In this document: positions 14,008-64,000 of the stretch, in pieces | How the letters are laid out: every line of letters begins with the position of its first letter | How positions within the stretch are numbered: the stretch's first letter is position 1 | Assembly (NCBI GenBank): GCA_036558125.1 | Contig: DATBGE010000108.1 | Location: 30,813 to 94,812 of the forward strand | Source: Gemmatimonadales bacterium | GTDB taxonomy: Bacteria; Gemmatimonadota; Gemmatimonadetes; Gemmatimonadales; GWC2-71-9 | Length of the DNA: 64,000 nt | Reading direction: 5' to 3' | Position numbers and translations under genes: made by a program | Notes under the pieces: generated by a model | What the model was told of the DNA's origin: nothing | Database searches by the model: none | Seen by the model: only the letters and a program-made list of their open reading frames with translations

Positions 14008-14055
14008 CGGGAGAACGGGAGAACGGGTGAACGGGTGAACGGGAGAACGGGTGAG
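14008..14055 (+). repeat. tandem octamer array, 6 x CGGG[A/T]GAA
   Basis: Read directly from sequence. Starts 3 nt after the TAG stop at 14002..14004. Gives six GGG tracts spaced by 5 nt. Confidence 0.95.
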
Positions 14056-37550: not shown

Positions 37551-38141
37551 CTAGGGAACCTGCTCACTGTTCAAGGCCAGGAGCCGCGCGCCCGCCTCGC
37601 CGATTTCGAGAGTAGAGACTCGTAGCCGATCGGCTGGGAACTCGAACGCTTTGTCGAGTGGAACCTCGAGCACATGGCAGAGGATTGCTCTGATGCTTCC
37701 CGCGTGGGCGACGACCACGACTTCTTCGGCCGGGTTGGTGAGGCACCGAGCGTACCAGTCACGGACCCGATCTGAAAGAACGCTGAACGACTCACCGCCG
37801 GGGACTCTTTCGGTTACCCAGCTTTCCATCCAGCGCTTGAGGCGCGCGTCGTCCCCGCGCTCGAGCGCATTCCAGAAGCGCCCATCCCATTCTCCGAAGT
37901 TCATTTCTCGAAGCCGGGCATCGATCGTCGGCGTAACGCCCCAACGTCGGCCGAGCGGATCGGCCGTCTCCCGAGCGCGACGGAGATCGCTGGACCAGAT
38001 ACACCCAGGAGCTCTCGGCCACGCCGCGACAAGTCGGCCGACGTGCTCGATGCCTTCGGGAGACAATGGAGCGTCGGTATGGCCCATCGCTCGCCCGTCG
38101 GCGTCGAGGGCGGGGCCGTGCCGCACCAGGTGAAGCTTCAA
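37551..38141 (-). CDS. histidine phosphatase family protein (PGAM/CobC-like)
   Basis: LVRHG catalytic RHG motif at the N-terminus and a downstream VVAHAG. Confidence 0.8.
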   Translation of the reverse strand: MKLHLVRHGPALDADGRAMGHTDAPLSPEGIEHVGRLVAAWPRAPGCIWSSDLRRARETADPLGRRWGVTPTIDARLREMNFGEWDGRFWNALERGDDARLKRWMESWVTERVPGGESFSVLSDRVRDWYARCLTNPAEEVVVVAHAGSIRAILCHVLEVPLDKAFEFPADRLRVSTLEIGEAGARLLALNSEQVP

Positions 38142-38995
38142 GCCGTGCTTTCGGTGGCGCTGCGCTGGCCCACGCCGGGATGTACCGGATTAGAGCCGCC
38201 CGACTCGCGAGCCCAGCGGAAGAAGATCACCCCGAAGGCAAACCAGAGTGGAAGGTCGCCGATGATCTTCATGGTGAGTCCCGCGATTTGCTGATCGGAA
38301 TGGGCGGGGAGGTCCATCGCGCGGGGTGCCAGTTCGTACACGCCGTAGAGCGGGTAATCGGCGAAGGTGAGGAAAGCCGCCGGGAGAATCGGCGGCAGGG
38401 TGGCTGCGAAGAGATATCCCATCTTCAAAGGGCGGGTAAGGCGGCCGATCGGCGGGGGCGCCATGATTGCCCACCAGAGCACGATTCCACCGAGGAACCA
38501 TGCCAGGTCGATGGCGAAGGCGCCGAGCTGCGAACCCATCAGTCCGTCTACCACATCCGGAATGTGAGTGCCGATCAGGATCGCGTTGAAAACCGCGAGA
38601 GCGATGAGTGGTCGGGCCAGAATCCGTAAGACCGGCCCCACGCGCGGCGACCGGGAGCCGCTGAGCATGGCCTCACTCGGAATGCCGGCCAGGAGCAGAG
38701 GCGGGGCGATGAGGCTCAGGAGGATGTAGCTGACGGTGTGGAAGCTGACCAGGTAGCCGGTCCCCAACGGACCAATTGGCCAGTCGAGTGCGAGCCAGAC
38801 GGTGAGGAGGCCGGCCGCAAAGAAATAGGCGGCTCGGCGGCTCGGCGGCTCGGCGGCTCGGCTTCGCAGGTCGGGGCCTCGGCGGATAACCAGGAAATAC
38901 AGAACGGCAAGAAGCGCGACGAACAGCCACACGCCGGGATAGGCCTTCCAGGCCCAGGTCCATGGCTGCCCGGTTGCCGAGCACCACCAGGTCAT
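38138..38995 (-). CDS. ctaG: cytochrome c oxidase assembly protein (caa3 CtaG family)
   Basis: Polytopic membrane protein with the FHTVSYILLSLIAPPLLLAGIP and VLWWAIMAPPP patterns typical of this family. Confidence 0.7.
   Translation of the reverse strand: MTWWCSATGQPWTWAWKAYPGVWLFVALLAVLYFLVIRRGPDLRSRAAEPPSRRAAYFFAAGLLTVWLALDWPIGPLGTGYLVSFHTVSYILLSLIAPPLLLAGIPSEAMLSGSRSPRVGPVLRILARPLIALAVFNAILIGTHIPDVVDGLMGSQLGAFAIDLAWFLGGIVLWWAIMAPPPIGRLTRPLKMGYLFAATLPPILPAAFLTFADYPLYGVYELAPRAMDLPAHSDQQIAGLTMKIIGDLPLWFAFGVIFFRWARESGGSNPVHPGVGQRSATESTA
38828..38862. repeat. tandem octamer GGCGGCTC x4 (plus a partial unit) inside the ctaG-like CDS
   Basis: Read directly from sequence. Encodes SRAAEPPSRRAA in the first loop of the protein. 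Confidence 0.9.
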
Positions 38996-48126: not shown

Positions 48127-48978
48127 TTACGCATTGGAGTCTATCCCGAGCTCGACTCCCAATACCTTGCGAGCGGCATATGCAACCAGGAGCAGCAGTC
48201 CGAACACGCAGACCACGACGGGCCCGGTAGGGAGGTCATACTGGAACGAGAGCCAAAGCCCGCCGGCCGAGCAGAGGACCCCGGCAACCCAGGACAGAGC
48301 TGACAGGGGACCGGTACGACGGGTGAACTGGAATGCGATGGCAGCCGGGACCACCAGGAATGAAAAAACCAGCAGGACCCCGACGATTGGGACCGAGAAA
48401 GTGATCACCAGCCCGAAGGAGAGGTAGAACAGGAAGTCCCAGAACTTGAGGTTCCAACCATTGGCGAGCGCTATTTCGGGTTCGAAGGATATGGTGAGGA
48501 ACCTGCGCCGCAGGATCCAGTGAAACAGCCCGACGAGGACGTAGACCAAAGCCAGCCGACCGATCGCGGGCCAGCCAACCCACAAGAGACTGCCCACCAG
48601 AATGTCCTTGATGGCTTCCCCGCCCCTTGGTGAGCGATCCGCCACGAGGATGCCGGCCGCCGAGGCGACGACAAACACGATTCCGATGATCGCCTCCTGG
48701 GGCACCCGCCCATGTCGGCCGGTGCGAGTCAGGGCGAACAGCGCGGCACCCAGAGTCGTGAAGCCGAGCGCGGAGGCAAAACTGCGGGTCGAATCGGGAT
48801 CTGCACCGGCGAAGATGGCGATGGTCGATCCCAACGCGGCCATCTGCGCCAGCGAGAGATCTACGAAAATGACCTCGCGGGCGATCACATGGAGACCGAG
48901 GTAGGAATGGATCGCCACGATCACCATGCAGGCTACCAGCGGAGCAAGCCACAGGCTGTGTACCAGCTGGTCGATCAT
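48127..48978 (-). CDS. metal ABC transporter permease (ZnuB/TroC-like)
   Basis: ATG at 48978 (MIDQLVHSLWLAPLVA...) overlaps the SBP stop (TGATG). About 8 TM helices typical of the ABC-3 family. The upstream part of the 49302 ORF is a shadow of the SBP gene. Confidence 0.85.
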   Translation of the reverse strand: MIDQLVHSLWLAPLVACMVIVAIHSYLGLHVIAREVIFVDLSLAQMAALGSTIAIFAGADPDSTRSFASALGFTTLGAALFALTRTGRHGRVPQEAIIGIVFVVASAAGILVADRSPRGGEAIKDILVGSLLWVGWPAIGRLALVYVLVGLFHWILRRRFLTISFEPEIALANGWNLKFWDFLFYLSFGLVITFSVPIVGVLLVFSFLVVPAAIAFQFTRRTGPLSALSWVAGVLCSAGGLWLSFQYDLPTGPVVVCVFGLLLLVAYAARKVLGVELGIDSNA

Positions 48979-50102
48979 CAGGCGCCTCCTCCTGTGAAGC
49001 CCGCGGCGAGACTGGAGATCCAGGTATTCATGAGATCGAAGTAGGTCTCGACACCCGGGGCCCCATGGGTGTTCTCCGGAACGATCACTGCCTTCGCGCC
49101 GGTCTTGGCTGCCACCTCTCCGATTTGGTTGCGATTGAAATAGTTGGACGCAAAGAGCACCGGAATCTTCCGCTCCTTCATCAGCGCGATCACTTCTTCC
49201 ACGTGCTTCGGCGTCGGTGGGATCCCCGGCTTCGCTTCGATGAAGGTGGCGCAGACCACCTTGAACCGGTTGCTGAAATAGGCCCATTCCTTGTGGTAGC
49301 ATGCCATTTCCCGTCCGCGGAAGACCTCACCCTGCTTGAGCCACCCTCCCAGATGATCGGAGAGCGGCTTGCCTTGGTATTTCGTGCGACCGATGAAGTC
49401 GAACAGCTTGTCGGTCTTGAGCAGGTCGAACGCGGTCGCGGGAGTGAGAATGCCGACCAGCTCCTGCCCCATGGTGGCCTCGAGAATCCGCTTCTCGAAG
49501 TCCTTTTCGCGATCCGTGAAGTAACTGGCATCTCCCGGGGAGACCCGGGTCAGACCGGTCATGATATTCCGCGCGATGATGATCGCGTTCAGTGGATCGG
49601 TGTGAATGTGGGGATTGCCGTCGGCGTGAATATCTCCCTGCGCCCGATTCAGACTGGTGGGGACCTCCAGCAGCGTGATGCCGGTATAGGCGGTGACGTA
49701 CCCGGGCCCGCCCTCGGACACCTTCCGGTTGTTGGCTCGGTCGAGCAGCGCCGGGACCCAAAGCTCCAAATCGAGTCCGGTCGTCACGAACAGATCCGCG
49801 TCGCGCAGGACCGCCACGAAGCTCGGCTTGGGCTGCACGAAGTGAGGATCCTCGTCGCCCTGGGCGATCGAAGTTATCGTGCCGCGATCGCCAGCAATCT
49901 CCCGCGCGATCGCCCCATAGGTCGTCAGGCTGGTGACGATCTTGAGCGGTGCGGTCCTTAAGGACTCCCTCGCTCCCGACTCGCGCTGTCGCGCTCCTGA
50001 GGGTCGCTCGGTCGCGACTCGGCGGCTCGGCGGCTCGGCGGCATGATGACTGGGCGGCTCGGCGAACAGCCCGGAAGCGATGGTGAGGAGAGCGAGAATC
50101 AT
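48978..50102 (-). CDS. metal ABC transporter substrate-binding protein (ZnuA/TroA cluster-9 family)
   Basis: LKIVTSLTTYGAIAREI...DPHFVQPKPS...DIHADGNPHIHTDP His-rich metal-site pattern. Confidence 0.85.
   Translation of the reverse strand: MILALLTIASGLFAEPPSHHAAEPPSRRVATERPSGARQRESGARESLRTAPLKIVTSLTTYGAIAREIAGDRGTITSIAQGDEDPHFVQPKPSFVAVLRDADLFVTTGLDLELWVPALLDRANNRKVSEGGPGYVTAYTGITLLEVPTSLNRAQGDIHADGNPHIHTDPLNAIIIARNIMTGLTRVSPGDASYFTDREKDFEKRILEATMGQELVGILTPATAFDLLKTDKLFDFIGRTKYQGKPLSDHLGGWLKQGEVFRGREMACYHKEWAYFSNRFKVVCATFIEAKPGIPPTPKHVEEVIALMKERKIPVLFASNYFNRNQIGEVAAKTGAKAVIVPENTHGAPGVETYFDLMNTWISSLAAGFTGGGA
50021..50064. repeat. octamer GGCGGCTC copies (2.5 tandem plus 1.5 more after a 12-nt gap) inside the SBP CDS
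   Basis: Read directly from sequence. Encodes AEPPSHHAAEPPSRR just after the signal peptide. Same unit as in ctaG. Confidence 0.9.
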
Positions 50103-51464
50103 TTAGTAGGTCTCGTGCTTGTGGGGGCCCATGGCGAACACCGCCTGGAGCAGAACCCGGTTGTCGGTGCCGTTGACGCTGTCGTGGTGGTGCTGGCCTT
50201 CCAGTCGGAGATACACGAACTCACTCTCCCACCAGGTGATGGCAGGTGTTATTCCCCATTCATTCGTATCGGGACCCCGCGGTGTTTCGACGTAGTCGTA
50301 CCGGGCGCCCAGGATCCAGCGCTGGCTGACCCGGAATGCCGCGTCGACAAAGGCGCCGTAGCGGGTCTGGGCCAGGCCCGCCTCTTTCGAGTGGAACTGG
50401 TAGCCTTCGGCTCTCAGGGTGAGATCCTGCCGGGTCCCGGCGTTGGGCGGACGCCAGGTCAGCCGGGCATCCAGGCCCAGCACTCGGCTGGTGAGAGCGC
50501 TGTCGGAATTGTCTCCCCCGAGTGCGGTGAAGCCGATCTGGCCGTAGGTGCTGCGGCTCAGCTGCCAGAAGTTCTGCAGCCGGCCCAGAAGGGTGGTGTG
50601 CCGGTCGGTCCCGAAGAGCGGATCGCTCTCGACCGACGTCGCCTGGGCCCAGATCTCGTGAGTGCCGTGCACCAGCGAAACGGGGAGCGTGGTGTAAAGG
50701 GAGAGTCCTACACCCGACAGGCCGTCGTCGCCGAAAAACCGGCGATAGACCAGGGGGTACTCAGACTCGGGAAGGGCGTGGAGGTGCCAGCGATTGAGAT
50801 CACCGACCTGCTGCCGATAGAGTCCTACGTCGGCTCGAATCCGCCCGGGAAGACCGGTCCAGTAGAGATAGCCTTCCTCTACGCCGACCTCTTCATTCTC
50901 GAAGGTCAGGAAGACCTTTGCGGTCGAGTAGGGGTCCAAGGTGGACTGGAGGCCTACCTCAAATTCGCGAGCCTGCGCGTCGAAATGTTCAGACCCATCC
51001 TGCCCGACCAGGCGGATGTCGCCTGTGGCGCTGATCTCCGGATTCAGGGCTGAGCCGCTGCGCTGGCGCCCGACAAATTCGGTGCGACCGGCCGCCGCAG
51101 TGTCAACCGGCGCCCCAACCGGCCGGCCGGCGGCAGAGTCAGCCGCGGCGCGCAATGCTGCCAGATCGTCGCCAGCCGTGTCCGGTGCGGCTCCCAGGCA
51201 TCGCTGGGCAACCAGCTTCTCCACTCGCTGATTCAGCCGATCGAGCGCAGTGGCCAGGCTGTCCGCAGCCGGCTCACCGGTCGGATGAGCAGGCAGTCGA
51301 ACCGCTGGCCCCGCGGGGCAAAGGCCCGCTTCCAGAGTATCCAGTCGCGCATTCAACGCGTGGACTGCACTCAGGGCGGAATCGGGTACCTGTGCGCTGG
51401 CGATCTGTCCACCGGTGAACAGGAGGACGAACAGGAGGACCGCACAGTGGGAGCGGTCTGTCAT
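50103..51464 (-). CDS. putative outer-membrane beta-barrel porin with N-terminal coiled-coil region
   Basis: Signal peptide from the ATG at 51464, heptad-like segments (LNARLDTLEAG, LDRLNQRVEKL), an NPEISATGD motif, alternating beta pattern and a terminal aromatic (...HKHETY). Confidence 0.6.
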   Translation of the reverse strand: MTDRSHCAVLLFVLLFTGGQIASAQVPDSALSAVHALNARLDTLEAGLCPAGPAVRLPAHPTGEPAADSLATALDRLNQRVEKLVAQRCLGAAPDTAGDDLAALRAAADSAAGRPVGAPVDTAAAGRTEFVGRQRSGSALNPEISATGDIRLVGQDGSEHFDAQAREFEVGLQSTLDPYSTAKVFLTFENEEVGVEEGYLYWTGLPGRIRADVGLYRQQVGDLNRWHLHALPESEYPLVYRRFFGDDGLSGVGLSLYTTLPVSLVHGTHEIWAQATSVESDPLFGTDRHTTLLGRLQNFWQLSRSTYGQIGFTALGGDNSDSALTSRVLGLDARLTWRPPNAGTRQDLTLRAEGYQFHSKEAGLAQTRYGAFVDAAFRVSQRWILGARYDYVETPRGPDTNEWGITPAITWWESEFVYLRLEGQHHHDSVNGTDNRVLLQAVFAMGPHKHETY

Positions 51465-52549: not shown

Positions 52550-52552
52550 AAA

Positions 52553-52622
52553 TGGCGGGATGGCGGGATGGCGGGATGGCGGAATGGCGGAATGGCGGAA
52601 TGACGAGAGACGAGAGACGAGG
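52553..52622 (+). repeat. compound tandem array: 3 x TGGCGGGA, 3 x TGGCGGAA, 3 x GACGAG[AG]
   Basis: Read directly from sequence. Starts 4 nt after the mazF TAA stop. Confidence 0.95.
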
Positions 52623-58390: not shown

Positions 58391-58509
58391 GAGAGTCTGG
58401 AGTCTGGAGTCGGAAGTCTGGAGTCTAGAGTCTGGAGTCTAAGGTCATGAATCGCTGATGACTCCAGACTCTCGACTCCAGACTTCCGCCTCTCGAATCC
58501 AGACTTCCT
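58391..58509. repeat. inverted heptamer arrays: 8 x [TG]GGAGTC-like, 14-nt spacer, 7 x GACTCC[AG]-like
   Basis: Read directly from sequence. The reverse complement of the right arm matches the left arm at 26 of 27 positions over GGAAGTCTGGAGTC[T/G]AGAGTCTGGAGT. Confidence 0.95.
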
Positions 58510-59233: not shown

Positions 59234-59309
59234 GTACCGCGTACCGCGTACCGCGTACCGAGTAAAGGCCGTTGGCTGTTCACCCAACTCGGTACTCGGT
59301 ACTAGGTAC
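59234..59309. repeat. inverted heptamer arrays: 4 x GTACCG[CA], 27-nt spacer, 3 x T[CA]GGTAC
   Basis: Read directly from sequence. Fills most of the 102-bp divergent region between the SDR and ABC exporter starts. Confidence 0.95.
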
Positions 59310-59318
59310 TTTTCATAC

Positions 59319-61217: not shown

Positions 61218-61297
61218 CGGGAGACGGGAGACGGGAGACGGGAGGACGGGGGAACGGGGGAACGGGGAACGGGGAACAGGGAACAGGGAACAGGGAA
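61218..61297 (+). repeat. drifting tandem 7-8-mer array: CGGGAGA x3, CGGGAGGA, CGGGGGAA x2, CGGGGAA x2, CAGGGAA x3
   Basis: Read directly from sequence. Begins at the nucleotide after the TAG stop (61215..61217). Confidence 0.95.
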
Positions 61298-61704: not shown

Positions 61705-61808
61705 GGGTCTAGGGTCTAAGGTCGTGAGTCACAAGCCGGTGAAGGACGGGACTCGGCCCGAGACTCAAGACCTTCGACCCGAGACCTTCGACCTCAGACC
61801 TTAGACCC
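61705..61808. repeat. inverted heptamer arrays: 4 x [GA]GGTC-type units, 27-nt spacer, 7 x nnGACC[TC] units
   Basis: Read directly from sequence. GGGTCTAAGGTC in the left arm is the exact reverse complement of the right-arm end. Ends 3 nt before a TTGACA hexamer. Confidence 0.9.
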
Positions 61809-63926: not shown

Positions 63927-64000
63927 ACGGGAGACAGGAGACGGGAGACGGGAGATGGGAGACGGGAGACGGTGAACGGTGAACGGTGAACGGTGAACGG
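63927..64000 (+). repeat. tandem heptamer array: ACGGGAG-type x6, then ACGGTGA x4+, running off the window
   Basis: Read directly from sequence. Starts 1 nt after the TGA stop (63923..63925). Confidence 0.95.

Follow-up and report, generated by a model that had tools for sequence, protein, structure and literature searches.

The window analyzed here is a 64,000-nucleotide stretch of a Gemmatimonadales metagenome-assembled genome (MAG), and two of its genes, some 11 kb apart, carry tandem copies of the same 8-nt unit in frame. The unit reads GAGCCGCC on one strand and GGCGGCTC on the other (canonical form AGCCGCCG). The first host gene, a 285-aa coding sequence (CDS) in the list of open reading frames (ORFs) at 38138..38995 on the minus strand, specifies a caa3-type CtaG, a cytochrome oxidase assembly factor; Pfam PF09678 (Caa3_CtaG) matches its residues 31-263 (E 8e-42). 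The array occupies 38828..38862, also in minus orientation, and consists of four copies of GGCGGCTC plus GGC on the plus strand, or (GAGCCGCC)x4.4 on the coding strand (Tandem Repeats Finder [TRF], 4.4 copies, 100% matches). The original prediction placed four tandem copies and a partial one within a ctaG-like gene, and that description holds, including the peptide read in frame: codons 45-56 encode SRAAEPPSRRAA, placed in the loop that joins the first two hydrophobic segments (context ...LRSRAAEPPSRRAAYFF...). Next to the array, at 38863..38886, lies a degenerate flank (CGCCGAGGCCCCGACCTGCGAAG on the coding, minus strand) that was delimited by alignment with sister species.

The second host gene (48978..50102, minus strand, 374 aa, from the same ORF list) encodes a ZnuA-family periplasmic metal-binding protein, with a PF01297 domain beginning at residue 55 (E 2e-45). 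Here the repeats, all in minus orientation, fall into two blocks. Array 2a (50018..50042) is a perfect periodic run of 3.1 copies that encodes AAEPPSRR in the linker after the N-terminal hydrophobic segment; array 2b (50053..50064) contributes GGCGGCTCGGCG, 1.5 copies encoding AEPP. The two are 10 nt apart, and the gap encodes SHH. Together they account for codons 13-30 and yield FAEPPSHHAAEPPSRR directly after the hydrophobic segment. The in-frame location and the peptide had been anticipated correctly; the copy number and the 12-nt gap assigned to this site are replaced by the figures given here. Abutting array 2a, at 49953..50019 on the minus strand, is a genus-specific repeat element of 62-67 nt (GAGTCGCGACCGAGCGACCCTCAGGAGCGCGACAGCGCGAGTCGGGAGCGAGGGAGTCCTTAAGGACCG on the coding strand) that is translated as VATERPSGARQRESGARESLRT and is considered further below. 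In the window no spacer separates the porin stop TAA from the znuA ATG (50100-50105, TACTAAATG); in relatives (L082:1400-1520; L162/L084) a (GCCGTTA)n repeat of up to about 11 copies lies between the porin-like stop and the znuA start.

None of the six reading frames of the unit contains a stop codon. Since 3 x 8 = 24, all three frames of one strand give a single cyclic octapeptide: GAG CCG CCG AGC CGC CGA GCC GCC specifies EPPSRRAA, a rotation of the cyclic AEPPSRRA encoded on this strand, and GGC GGC TCG GCG GCT CGG CGG CTC, on the opposite strand of the unit, specifies GGSAARRL. Third codon positions are G or C in 7/8 cases on both strands, and G occurs in runs no longer than the GG doublet. 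The 8-aa peptide period arises only from three units (24 nt). Because the unit is 8 nt long, only three-unit steps remain in frame and every single-unit slip is a frameshift. The suggestion that both genes stay open only at their current copy numbers was therefore too strong; a gain or loss of three units (24 nt, 8 aa) preserves the frame, and such changes are seen in natural alleles.

The two sites belong to a larger family. The genome examined, that of the MAG containing the window (G000; 3.98 Mb, 64% GC, 231 contigs), holds 245 perfect arrays of period 7 and 52 of period 8 with at least 3 copies, as against 0 and 0 in three simulated order-3 Markov genomes. At periods 5 and 10-12 the genome does not exceed the simulations, and at periods 6 and 9 it does so only slightly (9 and 4 versus 0-1 and 0). 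This strong enrichment of periods 7 and 8 only points to a process with an intrinsic 7-8-nt step. In the genome as a whole TRF reports 624 rows for period 7 and 157 for period 8, derived from few unit families, the commonest octamers of which combine a common GGCGG core with three bases that vary (ACC-, AAT-, CTC-, and TTC-GGCGG). The octamer family described here is one component of a Gemmatimonadales surplus of tandem arrays with 7- and 8-nt units that extends over the whole genome. The window contains seven more 7/8-nt arrays, at 14008-14051, 52551-52622, 58393-58508, 59234-59310, 61218-61297, 61705-61808, and 63927-64000; their units are CGGGAGAA, AATGGCGG, GAGTCTG/GACTCC, GTACCGC, CGGGAGA/GGGGAAC, AGACCTT, and ACGGGAG/ACGGTGA.

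The AGCCGCCG family itself comprises 17 TRF arrays in the genome, nine of them with at least 2 exact copies. According to a simple codon-score gene caller built for this analysis (3377 genes, 88.6% coding), 13 of the 17 are CDS-internal, 3 lie within 30 nt of the end of a CDS, and 1 overlaps the lexA stop. The original prediction had proposed counting the tandems in coding versus intergenic DNA, and the count does favor genes, although with 11% non-coding DNA in the genome the excess is not significant. The heptamer arrays of the same genome, by comparison, are 62% intergenic, and 20% of them overlap 3′ ends. Unit arrays are spatially clustered, with 3 pairs within 2 kb of one another versus 0.13 expected (P = 0.001); the ctaG-znuA pair, 11 kb apart, would not reach significance by itself. 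The array directly after the lexA stop counts 4.9 copies in this genome and 13 in that of a sister species, a slippage-like change in copy number at a place where nothing constrains the array. In a sister genome, apparently intergenic unit arrays reach 13-17 copies, and of four long arrays looked at there, three are crossed by no coding-like ORF. The two 17-copy perfect arrays of that genome (G008:C1:104024-104167 and G008:C5:24200-24335; L184, L185) differ in this respect: one is without a coding-like ORF, and the other, beside GC-rich octamer arrays of the GGACGGGC and GGCGAAC types, is spanned by a long ORF of coding-like composition, so that its intergenic position is less certain.

At least 15 unrelated genes carry unit arrays, and those that could be typed are housekeeping genes. 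Nine hosts were typed with Pfam: an MsbA-like ABC exporter, UvrD, TrpD, DinB, LigD, a class-A PBP (PBP-C domain), an ABC ATPase with a TOBE domain, ETF-QO, and FtsW/RodA. Given hosts this varied, nothing ties the unit to metal genes, and the link to a metal module that the ctaG and znuA sites had seemed to imply is not supported. What the hosts do share is the placement of the array: it avoids the matched Pfam domain envelopes in eight of the nine, falling between domains or in a terminal tail. The arrays of CtaG (in a loop between hydrophobic segments) and ZnuA (in a linker ahead of the domain) fit this placement as well. In the MsbA-like exporter two oppositely oriented unit arrays lie 44 nt apart just before the ATPase domain (G000 C3:4981-5086), encoding GSADGRLGASA and AEPPSRRAAE and forming an inverted repeat within the CDS.

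The closest relatives of the window genome are likewise Gemmatimonadales MAGs. We searched 41 relatives from the order, 5 of the window's genus and 36 from 30 other genera, for three units with up to 1 mismatch. Arrays of at least 3 copies were present in 5/5 genomes of the genus and in 1/36 of the others, so that GC content does not explain them; a control search with the reversed unit was uninformative, the reversed unit being a rotation of the unit itself. Among these 41 sampled relatives, the unit family is essentially confined to the window's genus. In the orthologs whose alignment had been proposed as a check, related species hold the array at both sites. The distribution over genera disposes of the suggestion that the unit is simply abundant everywhere in GC-rich DNA. 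The single octamer is indeed unremarkable, about 2-fold over expectation in the window (14 copies versus 7.8 expected; 3 of 100 shuffles reach 14), and if nothing else were known the arrays might be put down to composition or to faulty assembly. Order-3 Markov genomes nonetheless contain no arrays of 3 or more copies, 35 of the 36 equally related genomes from other genera have none, and the arrays are found again at orthologous positions in assemblies made independently from short and from long reads. The distribution over 41 genomes and the Markov simulations refute an origin by chance, GC content, or assembly artefact.

Comparison of orthologues shows how the two sites vary. Gemmatimonadales provided 80 orthologous ctaG loci, and across 70 orthologues the distance between the YPGVW and LDWP anchors ranges from 120 to 198 nt; the ctaG loop is a length-variable spot. 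In four sister species the ctaG array shares its right-hand boundary with that of the window (GAGCCGCC|T/C.T.T), with 4.4, 2.4, 2.1, and 1.4+2.4 copies (4.4 in the window). The products of the genus, represented by 14 CtaG proteins mostly from short-read assemblies, are 270-298 aa long, all in frame, and differ almost only in the loop; all 16 CtaG proteins taken from short-read assemblies, with 79-100% identity, are in frame. P0012 (270 aa, RAVRR-AALYY) and P0006 (278 aa, RAVRR-PAEPRSRR-AALYY) have common flanks and differ in length by 8 aa in the loop. From the second hydrophobic segment onward, P0001 and the window protein are identical through to the C-terminus; they differ only in the loop and a few adjacent residues. 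P0122, a CtaG of the same 90%-identity cluster, has no array. An array-less orthologue from another genus (L008) has a single GAGCCGCC at the site, and its loop reads SEPPSR. In other Gemmatimonadales genera the loop (L014:3091-3200; also L015, L024, and L027) holds octamer arrays of different units, for example AAGGCGGC x3 followed by inverse GGCCGCCT/AACCGC units, encoding peptides such as DRLTAWPP, and the site is therefore a recurrent array hotspot.

The znuA site behaves in much the same way. An array is found at the orthologous position in relatives down to 72% protein identity, and also in at least one more distant MAG from outside the 41-genome sample (L162/L084). More distant znuA orthologues, with L123 and L146 as array-less examples, retain one GAGCCGCC (A/G-E-P-P) at the array site, and the AEPP motif at the position of array 2b recurs in ZnuA orthologues of other genera. 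Within a 90%-identity cluster the ZnuA proteins are 346 (FAEPPSHHAAAPLKIV, no array; P0127), 354, 362, 369, and 374 aa long; the 346-, 354-, and 362-aa alleles are separated by 8-aa steps in the linker. Full-length ZnuA alleles from short-read assemblies are all in frame, including 6 in the 90% cluster. Judged from these alignments, arrays are shown to have been present at both the ctaG and the znuA site before the sister species diverged. Some close alleles are array-less; others are set apart by three-unit (8-aa) steps or by further kinds of in-frame indel. The lone seeds, taken with the 8-aa allele steps, suggest an expansion in situ from a seed that would proceed in three-unit quanta under frame constraint.

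A unit whose length is not a multiple of three, repeated early in two coding sequences and changing in copy number over evolutionary time, invites another interpretation, which the original prediction raised as a possible slipped-strand switch. On this view, a gain or loss of one unit would reversibly switch CtaG and ZnuA off and on in subpopulations. Simple sequence repeat (SSR) contingency loci work in this manner, producing phase variation by slipped-strand mispairing in host-adapted bacteria. Their host genes are environment-facing and dispensable, encoding surface antigens, restriction-modification systems, and adhesins. The arrays described here resemble such loci in being tandem repeats near the 5′ end of a CDS with a unit that is not divisible by 3; they differ in the shortness of their tracts, in the housekeeping nature of their host genes, and in belonging to an environmental bacterium that has not been cultured and is represented solely by metagenome assemblies. 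Reliable assemblies yielded no out-of-frame allele. L003 and L024, two of the relatives, do have ctaG loops whose length is 1 mod 3, but both are nanopore MAGs. In three nanopore MAGs of the genus (G002-G004; L164-L168), including the one to which L003 belongs, znuA is broken, far from any repeat, into 2-5 frame pieces with internal stops, and on our reading of the sequences the shift in L003 maps to the left of the perfect array. For these two reasons the frameshifts were treated as assembly indels, and the L003 and L024 loops were rejected as OFF alleles.

Other observations lead away from a switch as well. The alleles from short-read assemblies are in frame without exception, the only frameshifts coming from a series of nanopore MAGs in which znuA is also broken elsewhere. 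Genes of the TrpD, FtsW/RodA, UvrD, PBP, and LigD families carry arrays too, and these are implausible targets for switching. The arrays have only 3-4.4 copies. Since ctaG overlaps its operon neighbours, a frameshift in it would be polar. We give little credence to the idea that these are contingency loci. Scanning metagenomes for the ctaG flanks separated by a variable gap gave 0 hits.

The repeated peptide might instead be what is selected, for example as a Pro/Arg-rich functional motif, so that AEPPSRR keeps the same DNA in both genes. An AEPP...PSR-like peptide does follow the N-terminal hydrophobic segment of ZnuA in several genera, encoded by partly degenerate DNA, and the SEPPSR of the L008 ctaG loop could be read in the same light. 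The genic arrays, however, occur in the two orientations about equally (about 9 encode AEPPSRRA and 7 of 16 the opposite-strand GGSAARRL), which argues against selection for AEPPSRR as such. P0127, P0122, and P0012, in the same 90%-identity clusters, manage without the segment; the encoding DNA is perfectly periodic rather than a set of synonymous variants; and the nested 62-nt element is read in two different frames, as ATERPSGARQRESGARESLRT in znuA and as RPSDLQEREGATRERRSPSG in the ctaG of L001. Selection for the peptide is, in our estimation, very improbable.

The element between the octamer arrays is the part of this system that is new here. The znuA copy is 91% identical over 57 nt to sequence inserted into the ctaG loop in a sister species. 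There are 3 copies in this genome and 4, 2, and 3 in sister genomes, so that the element is present in 4/5 genomes of the genus. The 36 genomes from other genera gave no comparable match, only three short partial hits (E 0.001-0.009), and an nhmmer profile built from 11 copies found none in this genome beyond the known three, two of which are intergenic. Most copies are bracketed by GAGCCGCC/GGCGGCTC arrays or by other octamer arrays, and the resulting array-element-array module is found across the genus in znuA, ctaG, uvrA, a 1454-aa helicase-like ORF on contig C65, a Tat-signal gene, and others.

Presence of the element varies from site to site. It is absent from the znuA genes of sister species and from the 346-aa allele P0127. 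In ctaG it is present in L001, P0005, P0009, and P0013-15, including an orthologue of 69% identity (P0015), and the window has at most a remnant. At the C65 site a sister genome has the element and the genome examined here has a solo array; at the C82 site, too, its presence differs between orthologous array sites; and in uvrA and the Tat-signal gene sister species have the complete module at positions that are empty in this genome, with neither array nor seed. In one genome, two copies at non-orthologous sites are alike at all but about 4 of 69 positions. The degenerate flank of the ctaG array (38863..38886) may be what is left of a left-hand array together with the left portion of the element found at this place in sister species; the match is short, being limited to CGACCT and GCGAAG, and the allele P0001 from the same cluster retains the right-end peptide of the element, SPSG.SRRAA. 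At G000 C188:2220-2330 two sister species (L170, L175) carry a GAGCCGCC array and the 62-nt element within otherwise alignable sequence; the same site in G000 has inverted AATGGCGG arrays (GGAATGGCGG... / ...CCGCCATTCC) with hairpin potential.

These comparisons show that arrays at different loci are connected, perhaps by conversion through shared repeats or by movement of the module. The claim that the ctaG and znuA arrays are not independent accidents is thereby upheld, on the strength of the 17-array family, its spatial clustering, its confinement to the genus, and the shared 62-nt element. Of the two causes offered for it, seeding or selection, some seeding or exchange between loci is retained and selection for AEPPSRR is not.

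The same comparisons raise the possibility that the arrays are the footprints of a small, non-autonomous mobile module (array, 62-nt core, array) that inserts in frame into linkers in the manner of the Rickettsia palindromic elements (RPEs), and that recombination between the direct repeats removes the core and leaves a solo array. The bracketing of most cores by octamer arrays is what such a module would leave, as is the presence or absence of the core at orthologous array sites (ctaG, the helicase-like ORF on C65, and C82), the occurrence of the whole module in the uvrA and Tat-signal genes of sisters at sites empty here, the age of the ctaG insert implied by P0015, the remnants of the core retained in ctaG of the window species, and the near-identity of two non-orthologous copies within one genome. 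The numbers speak differently: there are 17 unit arrays in this genome and 3 cores, two of them intergenic; most arrays are without a trace of a core; among the genome's other 7- and 8-nt arrays, hundreds lack such a core; and znuA has its array without the core in orthologues down to 72% identity. The alignment of 12 element copies revealed neither terminal inverted repeats nor target-site duplications, and no transposase was seen. RNA folding of the element with its flanks, on both strands, was no better than that of shuffled sequences (z -0.80, -0.51, and +0.16), and an Rfam search of the znuA repeat region found no match at E values up to 1. An apparent A/T to G/C covariation between two element columns was rejected as a sign of structure; the columns are not in a helix, and descent of subfamilies explains the pattern. 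A mobile module as the source of the arrays strikes us as unlikely, if a good deal less so than a switch or selection for the peptide.

We think it probable that the repeats constitute a stop-free octamer family that changes by slippage and by exchange between loci and that is kept in genes only in the form of in-frame linker extensions. Three processes would be at work: (i) replication slippage would make arrays grow and shrink, probably starting from a pre-existing GAGCCGCC seed that encodes Glu-Pro-Pro; (ii) in coding DNA, selection would retain in-frame outcomes only, at positions where a short segment rich in Pro, Arg, Ala, and Ser is harmless; and (iii) the arrays would supply short homology between loci, allowing sequence to move from one to another, including the 62-nt element as a passenger (in znuA here, in ctaG in the sisters). 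The encoded peptides are most likely near-neutral linker extensions, and the arrays most likely represent a mutational liability rather than a regulated switch.

Several points weigh against this explanation by slippage, exchange, and tolerance. The allele evidence consists of assemblies and proteins, which neither show nor exclude rare out-of-frame subpopulations, the signature of a switch. The observation that all alleles are in frame is biased, because searches of protein databases cannot return frameshifted (OFF) alleles as full-length proteins. A pure tolerance filter predicts that most arrays should be intergenic, and this unit is almost entirely genic (not a significant departure with n = 17 and 11% non-coding DNA). 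The modules in uvrA and the Tat-signal gene of sister species occupy sites that have neither array nor seed here, and expansion in situ does not explain those. Finally, the expansion of 7- and 8-nt periods alone has no explanation within this scheme.

Parallels to parts of this system are known from elsewhere. Xanthomonas (GGGAATC) and Nostoc/Anabaena (GGGGA(C/T)T, STRR-type) have heptamer SSR families (Rehm et al. 2015, PMC4692102) in which 68-93% of the repeats are intergenic; they lie close to gene 3′ ends and are scarcer than expected on the coding strand (PMC4692102). As with those families, we find hundreds of short, dispersed arrays (about 4-5 copies) from few families in a GC-rich genome, and the arrays are lineage-specific, turn over rapidly between related species, and have no proven function (compare PMC4692102). 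The heptamers of this genome match the mostly intergenic and 3′-end placement of the STRR-like repeats; the GAGCCGCC family does not, having an 8-nt unit, 13 of 17 arrays within coding sequences, no stop codon in six frames, and only GG runs where the Xanthomonas and Nostoc heptamers have GGG or GGGG.

RPEs are palindromic elements of about 150 bp that occur in dozens of copies, each encoding a conserved peptide (PMC10969869). They share with the present module the insertion of a repeated element in frame into unrelated housekeeping genes, at positions compatible with the protein, where the added peptide is tolerated (PMC10969869). The module differs in having a core of about 62 nt, in 2-4 copies per genome, that folds no better than shuffled sequence, is read in differing frames, and is embedded in tandem octamers. 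The tandem repeats of Borgs create intrinsically disordered regions, and all units within their ORFs have lengths divisible by three (Schoelmerich et al. 2023, PMC9879509). They too are genome-specific, fast-evolving, perfect tandem repeats in ORFs that encode low-complexity peptide, often in membrane or secreted proteins (PMC9879509); the unit described here, at 8 nt, is not divisible by three.

Two practical warnings for annotation follow. Arrays of this kind should not be read as phase-variation switches, and frameshifts at arrays in nanopore MAGs should not be taken for biology without read support.

Dispersed repeats of the 7-nt class have been described as intergenic and as avoiding the coding strand, and here one unit of such a class is almost wholly genic in spite of a period of 8 nt that shifts the frame. 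The comparative series shows what selection lets pass, namely stop-free units, linker positions, and three-unit quanta, and it shows that sequence is exchanged between arrays at unrelated loci. It is conceivable, though we regard it as a doubtful conjecture, that a mobile or conversion-driven in-frame module is colonising the linkers of essential genes in one free-living genus of Gemmatimonadales, with the arrays acting both as portable homology, moving sequence between unrelated genes, and as a frameshift-prone fuse, single-unit slips in which would reversibly inactivate the host gene. If true, a selfish coding insert of the RPE type would exist beyond the obligate intracellular bacteria, and the process behind it would have an intrinsic step of 7-8 nt. 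The comparative series offers a system in which to study the creation and remodelling of linkers by repeats, the spread of repeats in a genome that shows no recognisable transposase for them, and the replication or repair activity that gives rise to the 7-8-nt step in Gemmatimonadales.

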